From IMG/VR virus record IMGVR_UViG_641736163_000010: DNA of 39,990 bases. One strand, 5' to 3'. The notes beneath the pieces were generated by a model. That model was not told the DNA's origin, searched no databases, and worked only from the letters and a program-made list of their open reading frames with translations. The position numbers and the translations under genes were made by a program. This DNA comes from a virus. Its lineage: Duplodnaviria; Heunggongvirae; Uroviricota; Caudoviricetes. This document shows positions 1,286 to 39,990 of the stretch, in pieces (the first letter of the stretch is position 1; each line of letters starts with the position of its first letter).

Positions 1286-1500
1286 AACCGCAGCACGTTC
1301 TTGCTTAAGACGTGCTGCGGCATAATCCCAATGATTACTCCCTGACAGGGTTCGTAGGCCACTCAATATCAGGTGCAGTTGATGTATCAACACGGTTCAG
1401 CAACACCCGATACTTTTTCCAGGCTTCCAGCAATGAGGTTTCTTCCTCCGTTACAATTTCCAGATCTGCAGCATCCTGAAGCGGCGCAATATGCTCACTG
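1286..1500. repeat. Direct repeat copy 2 (~220 bp; tfa 3' end plus 11-bp-stem hairpin at ~1288-1320)
   Basis: Near-identical to 236-460; hairpin ccgcagcacgt-N11-acgtgctgcgg lies between the convergent MTase and tfa stops. Confidence 0.7.
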
Positions 1501-1919
1501 GCTACCTGCATCAGGTTGTTTTTTGTTTCTTCCGCCTCCCGGATCCGGAACAGTTTTTCTGCTTCTGCATCTTTCACCCAGGTTGTGCCGTTCCACTTCT
1601 GAAACTCCCCTTCCGGCGATAACCAGGTAACATTTTCCGGTAATAAGCCGAGTTCAGAAATAAATAACGCGTCGCCGGAAGCTACGTCATAAACCGTTTT
1701 ACCCCGATGATCTTCAACGAGATGCCACGATGCCTCATCACTGTTGAAAACAGCCACAAAGCCAGCCGGAATATCTGGCGGTGCAATATCGGTACTGTTT
1801 GCTGGCAGACCTGTATGAGGCGGAATATATGCGTCACCTTCACCAATAAATTCATTAGTTCCGGCCAGCAGATTATAAATTTTTATGGTCCGTGCTTGTT
1901 CACTCATTCTGAATGCCAT
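1335..1919 (-). CDS. tfa: Tail fiber assembly protein Tfa
   Basis: 194 aa; [44 protein letters not shown]... is near-identical to lambda Tfa; start overlaps the stf stop (TAATG). Confidence 0.93.
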
Positions 1920-25603: not shown

Positions 25604-26671
25604 ATGAGTCAACATCAATATTATCCACAGCTGAAATGGAAGCCTGCTGAATATGAATCTCTGATGCTTTTAGATCAAACTACGCTCTCTGGTTTTACTC
25701 CGATCATTACCATTCCAGACATAGACTGGGATTATGAAAACGAATGCTACAAGAAGAGTTTGAGTTCTTACTTATCTGACTTCGGTATTAACCTTGCGGC
25801 ATCCTGGAAAGCCAATCGTCCTGTTTTGCTGGATGTTAAATATTTAGATAAACATGGTTCGAGCCGCCATCATCCTCTAGATATGTGTATCCAAGATGCT
25901 AGAGTAAATGGTAAGGAAATTATCCCTGTTGTTTCTCCCGCATATTCAACAAACTATATACATGCTGTTCAACGCAACTTAATCAATGGGCTCGCTATAT
26001 CTATCACCCCCCAGACATGGCACCAATTCACAAGTCTGGTTAACCACTTAAATATTCATCCTAGTTTAATTGATGTAATCATTGATTTTGGAGATATTCA
26101 AAACGCAACTGATAGTTTAAAACAACAAGCATTAAGCATGGTCAACACATTATCAGGCCAAGCTCCGTGGAGAAACTTGATTTTATCTTCAACCGCATAC
26201 CCGGCATCACAGGCAGGGATACCGCAACATCAAGTTCATCATATTCCGCGCCATGAATACGATCTTTGGATGTACGTAGTACAGAATTTTAGCAATGGAA
26301 GAACGCCAAGTTTTAGTGATTATCCCACCGCTAGCTCTACCATTACGAGCGTAGACCCACGCTTCATGTCTCAGTATGTCTCAGTGAGATATTCGAACGA
26401 TACCTCATGGATCTTTGTAAAAGGTACCGCAGTTAAAGGAAATGGATGGGGCCAAACTAAAAACTTATGTACTACCCTTGTTAGTTCGCCAGAGTATCAA
26501 GTCTTTGGCTCCAAATTTAGTTGGGGGGATGATTACATTTACCAAAGATCATTAGGCGCTAACAAATCTGGCGGCTCTAAAGAATGGCGTAAAGTTGCAC
26601 ATACGCACCATATTACGTTAGTCGTGAGACAGCTTTATTGGTTGGCGCAGACTCAGCCTGCCAAGCCTTAA
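25604..26671 (+). CDS. Hypothetical 355-aa protein of AT-rich moron cassette (possibly Beta-protein/sce7725-like; unverified)
   Basis: Long ORF with strong AAGGAG SD; AT-rich codon usage unlike flanking phage genes; opposite strand to the late operon; N-terminal YYPQLKWKPAEYESL; no catalytic motif I can name. Confidence 0.8.
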   Translation: MSQHQYYPQLKWKPAEYESLMLLDQTTLSGFTPIITIPDIDWDYENECYKKSLSSYLSDFGINLAASWKANRPVLLDVKYLDKHGSSRHHPLDMCIQDARVNGKEIIPVVSPAYSTNYIHAVQRNLINGLAISITPQTWHQFTSLVNHLNIHPSLIDVIIDFGDIQNATDSLKQQALSMVNTLSGQAPWRNLILSSTAYPASQAGIPQHQVHHIPRHEYDLWMYVVQNFSNGRTPSFSDYPTASSTITSVDPRFMSQYVSVRYSNDTSWIFVKGTAVKGNGWGQTKNLCTTLVSSPEYQVFGSKFSWGDDYIYQRSLGANKSGGSKEWRKVAHTHHITLVVRQLYWLAQTQPAKP

Positions 26672-27233
26672 CTTTCCAGCCTACGCGTTTCTTTAAGGCT
26701 GTTCTGACTTCAGGCCTGAGATTCGCTATTGGAATATTTTCCGCAATAATATTCCATAACTCAAATCGGGGCTTGCTTTTGATTCCTTTGGAATAGCCCC
26801 ATCGTTCAAGTACGTCGATACATTCATCTTTCCAAAGCAATTGAGCGAGCATCAATGTGTCATGGTTTCGATTAAGCTTTTCTCCACGCATGTGCTTTAT
26901 AAGAATGGCGCCTTTTGGCCCAACAGAAACCGTTTTAACGCCCCACCAACCTGGGATTAACTTTAATGCTCCCTCAAGGTGTTTCTCAGCTACGACAAGA
27001 GTAACCTTGTCCATTACAGAAGAATAATGCTTGATTTGAAGAGGCAAACGCTCCAAAGAGTCATATTCACTTTTGAGCTCGTACCCGTGTATAACACCAT
27101 TTATTACAGCAATGTCTGCTCTACTGGCGCCAAGGGATATGGAAAATTCATCGACCACAAGGCAGTCTGGATCTAAATGCGATTCTTTCAAAAGCTTATG
27201 ATGCACCGCGAACCTAACATCTTGATCTTTCAT
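26613..27233 (-). CDS. Hypothetical 206-aa protein with PD-(D/E)xK-like nuclease motif (possibly sce7726-like; unverified)
   Basis: AAGGAG SD 5 nt upstream of ATG; consensus TATAAT ~30 nt upstream; sequence ...VVDEFSISLGASRADIAVINGVIHGYELKSEYD... fits D-x(n)-E-x-K spacing of restriction-endonuclease-fold nucleases; 3' end overlaps the 355-aa gene by 59 nt (convergent). Confidence 0.8.
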   Translation of the reverse strand: MKDQDVRFAVHHKLLKESHLDPDCLVVDEFSISLGASRADIAVINGVIHGYELKSEYDSLERLPLQIKHYSSVMDKVTLVVAEKHLEGALKLIPGWWGVKTVSVGPKGAILIKHMRGEKLNRNHDTLMLAQLLWKDECIDVLERWGYSKGIKSKPRFELWNIIAENIPIANLRPEVRTALKKRVGWKVKAWQAESAPTNKAVSRLT

Positions 27234-37496: not shown

Positions 37497-37525
37497 ATAA
37501 AAACAAAAAACCCGCCGAAGCGGGT
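37497..37525 (-). terminator. Strong rho-independent terminator after the HTH-ImmA gene
   Basis: Minus strand ACCCGC-ttcg-GCGGGT followed by TTTTTTGTTTTTATTTT. Confidence 0.65.
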
Positions 37526-37529
37526 ATAC

Positions 37530-38636
37530 TCAAACAATCTGGAAAATATTTCTTGGATTTGTAATAGGTCTGTTGATGGAGAACAACTCACGAATTAAAT
37601 CTTGGCTCAAGCCAGTTTTCATAAGAATTCTTAGCCAGGTTGCATCATCCAGCATTTCAATCGCCTCGGCCAGCATGCCGGGTTCTTCAGGGCGCAAAAG
37701 TTCATCACCAGGTTCAACTCTCGTATACCCTCTGGAATTAAGATGCATATAGCCAGTTCTTGCCTGTTCCTGGGTCAATAAGCCTAATGCGCTGGCTCGA
37801 TAAATACACATTTTAAGGCTGATTTTCCATCTAAGTTTAAATTCAACCAGAGCATTCCAGTCGAATTGCTTACCTCGTATTCGTGGAAATTCTTTAATGA
37901 AAGATAACCTGGGAACTAATAAGGCGCTCGAAAAGTGATCGGCTTGTGATTCCGTAAGTTTATCACCTGTCGTTATGCCCTCATGCATTACTAAATGCCC
38001 TAATTCATGACCTAAATCAGAGCGAAATCTACATATGCTTTTTTTAACATTGTTCCTGATGATAACAGGCCTGTTATTGTGAACAGTAAAAGCATCAACA
38101 CGATCATCGACTCCCGTAACATGCGCAACGATTACCCCTAAACTCTCCGCCAATTTAACCATTGATGATATAGGGCCAAGACCTAAATTCCAGGCACGGC
38201 GACAATCTTCTGCCACTCGCTCAATATCATTCGGAGTAAGTAATTCAGCCCCTGGGTGCTCCGGTATGTTAACGTCAGGAAATTCGATTTCACCTTCAAC
38301 AGCAGAAATTATAATATTAAGAATCTCAGCCCTGGCCAATACACTATTAGTCAGCGTTTGAGTCCTGGACTTCTTACTCCGAAAATGGCAGACATCACTT
38401 TCCAGAGCGTATTTTCGTTCAGTAAAAAGAAAACTGGACTTAATCATAAGCGCTGAAGATATTAACTCAAGACATTGCTCCGATGGCCTGCACCCCTTCT
38501 CCAGTTTGCTAACGAATTGCTTTGTCTTGCCAATTTTTTCGGCTAACTCTTCACAAGAAAGCCCAACAGCCATTCTCGCTAGTTTGAGCTTATCACCCCG
38601 ATACTCAGTGAAGTTATTCACCTGATGTTCCATCAC
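37530..38636 (-). CDS. Fused XRE-family HTH / ImmA-IrrE (COG2856, M78) zinc metallopeptidase
   Basis: N-terminal HTH (LKLARMAVGLSCEELAEKIGKTKQFVSKLEKG); central HExxH (RSDLGHELGHLVMHEG); ~130-aa C-terminal extension; start overlaps the upstream gene by ~20 nt. Confidence 0.85.
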   Translation of the reverse strand: MMEHQVNNFTEYRGDKLKLARMAVGLSCEELAEKIGKTKQFVSKLEKGCRPSEQCLELISSALMIKSSFLFTERKYALESDVCHFRSKKSRTQTLTNSVLARAEILNIIISAVEGEIEFPDVNIPEHPGAELLTPNDIERVAEDCRRAWNLGLGPISSMVKLAESLGVIVAHVTGVDDRVDAFTVHNNRPVIIRNNVKKSICRFRSDLGHELGHLVMHEGITTGDKLTESQADHFSSALLVPRLSFIKEFPRIRGKQFDWNALVEFKLRWKISLKMCIYRASALGLLTQEQARTGYMHLNSRGYTRVEPGDELLRPEEPGMLAEAIEMLDDATWLRILMKTGLSQDLIRELFSINRPITNPRNIFQIV

Positions 38637-39264
38637 TGCTCACATCCAAATCTTTATCCTTCGTACGCCGACGAAGAGGCACCTTATTAATCTCCGCTTC
38701 GTCAGGGAGTGTGTTATAATCAAGAGGCATAAGCGGCATCGATGCTGTAGATTGATGAGAAACTATACTAATCTGAGCACCATAAGTATTAAATCCAACA
38801 AGAGCTACCTCCCAACGAGGCAGTGTGGACTCTAATTCACCATCGCCCTCTTCGGATAAAAAAGGCTCAGCTATGACTCGCCATGTAATATCTTGCTCAG
38901 CCTCAACATCACCAAACAATGAGAGCTGCTCATACTCTACTTTATTTCGACGCAGACGATGTTTCTTTTTGGGGTTATTAATGCAATCTTTGGTAAATTG
39001 TAGCGGAACTTTATTTAAAGCAACTACATAGTCCAACCCCTTGGAAATCATCTCAAGGCCAGGAATTGCATCTTCATTTTGAATAAGATGATTTCTGACC
39101 CAATCATAAGCCCTTACACCTTCAGACCAGTTGCTGTCTAATGCGTGCTTATGATAGTACAGCTGCTCAAGTACGTTAGCGATCTCCGCCAACAAGTGGC
39201 GAACATAGTTTTCAGCAAGATAAGGTTGAAATTCCCAACAAGGAGCTAACTGATTTTCATTCAT
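38614..39264 (-). CDS. Hypothetical 216-aa protein, first gene of the operon with the HTH-ImmA gene (no recognisable domain)
   Basis: ATG-initiated ORF, AT-rich; acidic C-terminal tail; translationally coupled to the downstream HTH-ImmA gene. Confidence 0.7.
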   Translation of the reverse strand: MNENQLAPCWEFQPYLAENYVRHLLAEIANVLEQLYYHKHALDSNWSEGVRAYDWVRNHLIQNEDAIPGLEMISKGLDYVVALNKVPLQFTKDCINNPKKKHRLRRNKVEYEQLSLFGDVEAEQDITWRVIAEPFLSEEGDGELESTLPRWEVALVGFNTYGAQISIVSHQSTASMPLMPLDYNTLPDEAEINKVPLRRRTKDKDLDVSSDGTSGE

Positions 39265-39324
39265 TTCAAGTTTCGCTTTTTTTAGAATTCGTAAACCACA
39301 TATTTTCGCATTTTTCTATTTTTG

Positions 39325-39990
39325 TCAACAAGATGTATGGGTCCACCACATATTGCAATTTTTATTCTCTTTTAAAATATATTCCACGGGCGTCATTAGT
39401 GCGAGCGCCTTGTGGGGTCTTTTGCTGTTATACAGCACCAGATATTCCGCCAGCTTCTGGTTAAATAGCGCCAGATCTTCAAAGAGTAAAATCTCATTAA
39501 ATTCAATAAACTGCTCTCTTAACGTCCGGTTAAAACGTTCACAGATAGCGTTCATTTTTGGCGTGTAGGGATAGGTCCAGAGGTGTTTGATAGCGGCTTC
39601 CTGCAGCGTTTTGTCGAAGTTTCCCAGGAACTCTTTTCCATTATCTGTGATTATCTGGCTGATACCGACCGGGAACAACCGGGCTGCGCGGCTGAAGAAG
39701 TGATTGACGATATCACTGTTGAGTGACGGCACAGCCAGCGCCAGCGCGTAATTGCTGCATTCGTCGATCATGGTGATGACATAGCGACGCAGTTCGCCCA
39801 TTCTGAGCTCAATGGCGTCCATCCCAATGAGCTCACCTGTCTTTACCGGGCGGGAGTGCTTTGGCCTGCGGGGTTTGGCAGACCGCTTTTTGACAAGCAG
39901 TGCCTTCCCCCGCGATCCCAGACGCACAGGTATCATCCGCATTTTATCATGTGCGGCAGCGATCATTCTGCCGATGGTGGAAACACTCGG
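39325..39990 (-). mobile_element. IS element transposase, DDE/rve integrase-core type (IS481-family-like), truncated by the window edge
   Basis: ...QIITDNGKEFLG...YTPKMNAICERFNRTLREQ...YNSKRPHKALALMTPVEY are hallmark integrase-core motifs; reading frame stays open upstream to position 39990. Confidence 0.7.

Follow-up and report, generated by a model that had tools for sequence, protein, structure and literature searches.

RosmerTA, named in 2022 (Millman et al. 2022), pairs a toxin, RmrT, with an antitoxin, RmrA. Two RosmerTA systems, OLC-716 of E. coli and that of phage Kita, defend against phages, and an rmrA deletion was not obtainable in a verified RosmerTA system. Vmi480 of Vibrio mimicus kills E. 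coli, and its partner Vmi470 rescues the cells (Luo et al. 2015); Vmi480 has been in use as a counter-selection toxin since 2015. In the pneumococcus, the Rosmer toxin RipA interacts with the sliding clamp DnaN, with suppressors mapping to the hydrophobic pocket of the clamp, and RipB depends on ClpX to neutralise it. A Rosmer toxin renders clpP essential in E. coli E101 and clpX essential in the pneumococcus and in Pectobacteriaceae; among Pectobacteriaceae, this holds only for strains carrying RosmerTA. Two genes in a 39,990-nucleotide stretch of tailed-phage DNA (IMG/VR record IMGVR_UViG_641736163_000010; hereafter the window, meaning the whole stretch analysed) very probably form a RosmerTA (RmrT/RmrA) toxin-antitoxin (TA) module of the abortive-infection type, whose toxin may act by poisoning DnaN. 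These two claims taken together are given a probability of about 0.6, a figure that lies between its two parts.

Lying in a lambdoid prophage, in its nin region, the cassette is self-contained: it has its promoter, two overlapping genes and its terminator. Its genes and their main landmarks are the following.

38614..39264, minus strand: rmrT, predicted 216-amino-acid (aa) toxin of the Vmi480-type RmrT family (open reading frame (ORF), PADLOC, PHROG and homology)
37530..38633, minus strand: rmrA, predicted 367-aa antitoxin/regulator with an XRE helix-turn-helix (HTH), an M78/ImmA zinc peptidase and a C-terminal extension (Pfam, PADLOC)
38436..38597, minus strand: XRE-type HTH of RmrA, about residues 13-66 (Pfam HTH_3/HTH_31; PDB sequence matches to SinR and 434 repressor)
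37995..38009, minus strand: HELGH zinc-binding motif of RmrA, residues 209-213 (translation; inside the Peptidase_M78 match)
38914..38928, minus strand: codons for QLSLF, RmrT residues 113-117, a consensus beta-clamp-binding motif (sequence)
37500..37525, minus strand: intrinsic terminator of the rmrT-rmrA operon (sequence scan)

Both proteins contribute to the assignment. PADLOC places the 216-aa protein in RmrT model PDLC03929 (E 4.6e-25, residues 7-209), and PHROG 5786 matches it over its full length (E 8e-85). The first-pass annotation, made from the letters alone, had found no recognisable domain in this protein, which is correct for Pfam and NCBIfam (no match in a scan of either library) and incorrect for PADLOC and PHROG. 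The 367-aa protein matches 14 RmrA models in PADLOC, the best being PDLC03943 (E 6e-105). Its Pfam matches to HTH_3 (E 5e-7) and Peptidase_M78 (E 6e-11), with HExxH intact, confirm the fused XRE-HTH/ImmA peptidase carrying HELGH that had been read from the translation. The locus has two sequence marks of RosmerTA: an antitoxin with an N-terminal XRE HTH and an M78 peptidase with intact HExxH, and an adjoining, co-oriented toxin gene that matches an RmrT profile. Membership of PD-lambda-2 (Vassallo 2022), a single operon of a HigB-like toxin, an Xre-peptidase and a third gene resembling P4 beta, is not indicated by the PADLOC models, in which RmrT matched neither HigB nor PD-Lambda-2 and RmrA did not match PD-Lambda-2_B.

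Vmi480 belongs to the same toxin family as the window RmrT. A Vibrio thalassae pair was found with the published vmi480/vmi470 cloning primers; its 198-aa and 362-aa genes agree with the vmi480/vmi470 description in termini, lengths and a 5-bp spacer. The RmrT of the window is 26% identical to this Vmi480-type protein (BLASTP E 7e-15) and its RmrA 47% identical to the Vmi470-type protein (BLASTP E 1e-123). The V. thalassae and window pairs also have the same best PADLOC models, and homology of both components places the window pair in the subfamily. Rousset et al. described the clpP-dependent E. coli E101 pair as a prophage pair 33%/42% identical to Vmi480/Vmi470; its toxin (WP_001179380.1) was not seen among the RmrT clusters looked up here, and its link to the family is the authors' 33%/42% statement alone. 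The earlier proposal of a candidate novel toxin next to an HTH-ImmA antitoxin thus stands as to kind (toxin-antitoxin or abortive infection, toxin upstream), given the RosmerTA profiles and the Vmi480/Vmi470 homology. It does not stand as to novelty: the pair is not new, its toxin family being catalogued in PADLOC as RmrT PDLC03929.

The rmrA start can be placed at two codons. The ATG at 38633, which is the RefSeq choice, gives 367 aa and a 20-nt overlap with rmrT, while a GTG gives 37530..38636, 368 aa and a 23-nt overlap. With the ATG start, the two-gene layout proposed in the first-pass annotation (a 216-aa ORF overlapping an HTH-ImmA ORF by about 20 nt) is reproduced. The AT-richness it noted is also borne out (42% GC in the operon, 52% in the whole window), as is the strong terminator: a 6-bp GC-rich hairpin, ACCCGCTTCGGCGGGT, followed by a T-run at 37525..37500, begins 4 nt past the rmrA stop. 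The extra C-terminal domain of RmrA was put at about 130 aa; only about 85 aa extend beyond the Pfam M78 match.

RmrT may be a soluble protein built on a degenerate restriction-endonuclease-like scaffold. Its AlphaFold2 (AF2) model (predicted local distance difference test (pLDDT) 83, predicted template modelling score (pTM) 0.73) has two long helices, then a beta-beta-beta-alpha-beta-beta-beta order and a disordered acidic/basic tail. The positions expected for the catalytic D and (D/E)xK vary or carry no acidic residues across the family, so RmrT is not regarded as a canonical nuclease, and a canonical active site was rejected on this ground. This bears on the alternative that the pair is RosmerTA and that RmrT kills as an enzyme, for example as a PD-(D/E)xK-type nuclease, or by some other activity, with QLSLF having only a structural role. 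Such a scaffold and the position of the motif at a helix end (see below) would suit this alternative; the lack of conserved catalytic residues speaks against a nuclease, and the alternative as a whole is considered unlikely.

The case for clamp poisoning draws on the motif, on the DnaN target of RipA and on the Clp dependence of Rosmer carriers. Residues 113-117 of RmrT, which would be displayed after the second core helix, read QLSLF, an exact instance of the beta-clamp-binding consensus QL[S/D]LF (QLxLxL in its hexapeptide form; PMC12309361). A clamp-type motif occupies the aligned site in 25 of 32 diverse RmrT members, against about 1% expected by chance per segment, and in 75 of 97 full-length members, with the variants QYRLF, QLTLF, QYDLF, QLSLPL and QMSLDF; these counts are of homologous sequences and not of independent events. 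QL[SD]LF arises in 3e-4 of RmrT shuffles. The OLC-716 RmrT family, unrelated in sequence to that of the window, keeps QLKLDL, QLNLDL or NLDLF in 38 of 39 members, and the OLC-716 model has its motif in a topologically equivalent place, within a disordered loop (pLDDT below 50). A search of the accessible literature found no paper that ties QLSLF or Vmi480 to the clamp or describes such a motif in RmrT, and the RipA paper mentions none. On this evidence the chances that RmrT poisons the clamp through QLSLF appear about even. A wider proposal, that Rosmer toxins of at least two families without detectable sequence similarity are clamp poisons, each presenting a canonical clamp-binding motif in the loop that follows core helix two of a catalytically degenerate restriction-endonuclease-like scaffold, is put forward somewhat more tentatively.

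Several points weigh against RosmerTA identity with clamp poisoning, beyond the common descent of the members counted above. By family conservation, the motif window comes no higher than 25th of 212, and a sub-cluster from Pseudomonas lacks the Gln, its site reading HDSLL. The AF2 model places Q113-S115 where a helix (H108-115) ends, and residues 111-120 have a pLDDT of about 70; because of this helix-end position, the Leu and Phe of QLSLF could be packing residues instead of a docking peptide. The Rosmer toxin of phage Kita depolarises membranes instead, and the link of RipA to the proposal is its DnaN target. Phage defence was shown for other RmrT families (OLC-716, phage Kita), this subtype being assigned by homology, and the evidence on the identity of this exact pair is sequence comparison and not experiment.

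If RosmerTA identity and clamp poisoning both hold, RmrA would repress the operon through its HTH and keep RmrT harmless, neutralising it by proteolysis with its own zinc peptidase, by hand-over to ClpXP, or both. Infection or loss of the element would tip the balance towards free toxin. Free RmrT would then plug the protein-binding cleft of the DnaN sliding clamp, stalling replication of the host and of any phage dependent on the host clamp, and defence would be expected to be biased towards phages of that kind. A conserved clamp motif would link the RipA-DnaN interaction, the essentiality of ClpX or ClpP and the lethality of Vmi480; the two-family proposal, if true, would explain why ClpX or ClpP becomes essential in carrier hosts. 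Widespread as RosmerTA is, its common toxin families in E. coli and Vibrio have no published mechanism. The locus itself is ordinary, a catalogued cassette found in about 4% of complete E. coli genomes, and the clamp lead is the only part that might be of specialist interest.

Identical cassette DNA (100%) occurs in many E. coli; among 5,426 complete genomes, 80% or more of a 1.9-kb query is present in 237. The E. coli 042 pair carries generic RefSeq names only: WP_001004956.1 ('hypothetical protein') and WP_000401168.1 ('helix-turn-helix domain-containing protein'). An exhaustive HMMER search of 1.84 billion proteins (E <= 1e-3) found only 37 representative RmrT clusters, those looked up being from Enterobacterales, Aeromonas, Vibrio, Photobacterium and Pseudomonas. 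A word-index search with the RmrT family alignment gave few further members and failed to recover part of its own query set. At 25% identity, distant homologues of RmrT again have, downstream, an overlapping gene for a 363-366-aa HTH_3 and M78 protein, on integrase/resolvase islands, and the RmrT/RmrA pairing is conserved. Four distant homologous loci (L005-L008, 5700-6404) contain a 234-aa gene with no Pfam match, 4 nt after rmrA, which is a possible third component of that branch. The window lacks this gene, its terminator directly following rmrA.

In E. coli 042, which lacks the insertion sequence (IS) found in the window, hokD lies directly upstream of the cassette and DUF968/RusA/Q downstream, neighbours that agree with the placement in a hok-bearing nin region made from the window alone. 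The cassette follows Q in a Serratia prophage, precedes DUF1367 in a Xenorhabdus prophage and lies between DUF977 and DUF968 in an Enterobacter prophage; because it occupies three different places, the pair behaves as a mobile cassette. A 20-nt terminator sequence, AAAAACCCGCCGAAGCGGGT, which is the hairpin sequence of the operon terminator, occurs twice in the E. coli 042 locus (L001, 8107-8126 and 9942-9961), flanking the cassette 1835 bp apart. This doubling suggests insertion or exchange at the hokD terminator.

The same context bears on a quite different explanation, in which the HTH-ImmA protein is a prophage repressor/antirepressor switch like ImmR/ImmA or CapH/CapP and the 216-aa protein a regulated phage function. 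M78 peptidases are related to the ImmA, IrrE and CapP proteases that cleave HTH repressors, and PADLOC reports capP (E 1.6e-14) and capH (E 1.5e-4) matches. The immunity region is elsewhere, however: in E. coli 042 the cI-like/YdaS/YdaT genes lie at a distance of about 7 kb. A separate promoter and terminator and a lower GC content mark the cassette, copies are also found on non-phage islands, and RmrT is carried by none of 50,697 sequenced phage records (tblastn, no match). The separate immunity genes, the islands and the variable position in prophages led to rejection of an immunity switch, which is regarded as highly improbable.

It is also conceivable that the pair serves only as a prophage addiction or stabilisation module with no role in phage defence. 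Characterisation of Vmi480/Vmi470, which lies on a mobilisable island, has been limited to its toxin-antitoxin activity, phage defence has been shown for other RmrT families, and one E. coli genome has an IS5-disrupted rmrT beside a retained rmrA, as is typical of TA decay. On the other side stand the defence by OLC-716 and the phage Kita system and the position of the cassette where related prophages carry defence-type cargo, such as the AAA ATPase and HNH genes of E2348/69; addiction and defence are, moreover, not mutually exclusive. A purely stabilising role is therefore judged improbable, though less so than an immunity switch. The disrupted copy is in E. coli FDAARGOS_1249 (L002, 7215-8774), where the stretch corresponding to rmrT of E. 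coli 042 contains an IS5-family element; only a 423-nt remnant ORF is annotated there and rmrA is intact, and the locus looks like decay of a toxin with its antitoxin kept. In E. coli E2348/69 (L004, 203-3768), an IS481-family element, the same as in the window, lies beside an AAA ATPase and HNH pair (Septu-like), next to hokD in the corresponding part of the prophage. The interval from hokD to DUF968 looks like a hotspot for defence-type cargo.

Upstream of rmrT, the window contains the leader of the cassette and the end of this IS481-family element.

39265..39329, minus strand: probable native promoter/operator region of the cassette (identity to E. coli 042, four-genus conservation)
39334..39990, minus strand: end of an IS481-family IS, cut by the end of the window (rve domains; 99.7% identity to annotated IS481-family elements)
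39325..39966, minus strand: transposase ORF of this element, running outward from the IS to a stop codon in the flank (ORF and rve domains)

A -35 hexamer, TTGACA, lies at 39328..39323 (minus strand), and its overlap with the transposase TGA (39325-39327), reported in the first-pass annotation, is confirmed. A candidate -10, AAATAT (39305..39300), follows after a 17-nt spacer, with TGcGAAAAT as an alternative extended -10; both were read by eye, and a consensus scan called no sigma-70 promoter ahead of rmrT. Two 33-nt units, GTTGACA..GCGAAA and GTTTACG..GCGAAA, make up the leader; they are identical at 19 of 33 positions and arranged in the same way in the Xenorhabdus copy. The repeat is weak and was recognised only by eye, not by the repeat search; the units could be tandem promoters or RmrA operators.

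An outward or hybrid promoter supplied by the IS had been suggested from the position of the hexamer. The transposase gene is co-oriented and no terminator precedes rmrT, so that read-through into the operon is possible. The IS terminus, placed at about 39334 by aligning three IS copies with the empty site, lies some 5 bp upstream of TTGACA, and the window is identical to E. coli 042 from rmrT to 39329 and then diverges. The hexamer and the whole leader are thus present base for base at an IS-free locus, and conservation upstream of rmrT in Enterobacter, Serratia and Xenorhabdus begins exactly at GTTGACA. TTGACA is therefore the cassette's own -35, being flank DNA conserved in IS-free loci of four genera; an IS-borne hexamer was rejected for the same reason, and a promoter contributed by the IS is very unlikely. 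The overlap with the TGA arises because the IS contains no stop for the transposase ORF, which runs on to a TGA in the flank.

Transposase length accordingly varies with the flank, being 348 aa in IAL7255 (L003, 2501-2520) and 362 aa in E2348/69 (L004, 2453). The window flank (39325-39340) and the IAL7255 flank are oddly similar, TTTTTGTCAA, which may reflect target preference. The IS junction of the window is absent from all 5,426 complete E. coli genomes.

Elsewhere in the window, two overlapping ORFs on opposite strands, 25604-26671 (plus) and 26613-27233 (minus), lie between the packaging and lysis regions. A P4 'Beta protein' gene there (Pfam PF14350) resembles PADLOC PD-Lambda-2_C (E 4e-32); it is 11 kb from rmrTA and on the other strand. 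Overlapping its end is an ORF with a match to the PADLOC 'cll' model (E 4e-31); the two may be a second accessory or defence-type cargo of the prophage. A block at 31857-32940 (minus strand) contains two STnc100 small RNA (sRNA) copies, a tRNA-Arg(tcg) and a tRNA with anticodon CAT, upstream of a type II-like DNA methyltransferase gene (32990-34039). An Rfam IS009 match lies within a tail-fibre assembly gene (1378-1576, minus strand).

Among known systems, the phage defence of the E. coli OLC-716 system has been verified (Millman et al. 2022). Like the window pair, OLC-716 is a two-gene operon with the toxin first; its sequences were taken from the supplement of the preprint. The two RmrA proteins are 29% identical and share an XRE HTH, an M78 zinc peptidase and a C-terminal extension, and the two RmrT models have the same secondary-structure order and a clamp-motif-like loop. 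The RmrT proteins differ in belonging to separate sequence families (PDLC03935 in OLC-716, PDLC03929 in the window), with no pairwise similarity and a profile-profile hhalign probability of 2%. Vmi480/Vmi470 of the V. mimicus island MGIVmi1 belongs to the same RmrT and RmrA sub-families as the window pair, also with the toxin first and with similar lengths (198/362 versus 216/367 aa), and the Vmi480-type protein has the clamp-motif variant QISLEL where the window RmrT has QLSLF. It differs in residing on a mobilisable genomic island and not a prophage, and in having genes separated by 5 bp where those of the window overlap by 20 nt. RipAB (Spr1630/Spr1629) of S. pneumoniae and the E101 pair are Rosmer-type like the window pair; their relation to the window RmrT is indirect, and the window RmrA falls below the spr1629 equivalog cut-off (156 versus 335 bits).

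ImmR/ImmA, DdrO/IrrE and CapH/CapP combine an M78 peptidase with an XRE HTH, as does the window RmrA. In the window, however, HTH and peptidase are fused and paired with a predicted toxin, and no separate repressor substrate is evident. SocAB, a type VI TA system of Caulobacter associated with Aakre and colleagues (2013), reportedly has a toxin that blocks the sliding clamp and is controlled by ClpXP with help from the antitoxin. The window pair would resemble it only in the proposed principle, a clamp block kept down by ClpXP with antitoxin help. SocA carries a Panacea domain, and RmrA has no Panacea/DUF4065 match in Pfam. According to the RipA authors, SocA/SocB share no sequence or structural homology with RipB/RipA, and for the window pair SocAB is an analogy and not a matter of membership. 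Should the two-family proposal hold, RosmerTA might be, with the same slightly less than even chance, a ClpXP-guarded replication block, analogous to SocAB and assembled from different parts.

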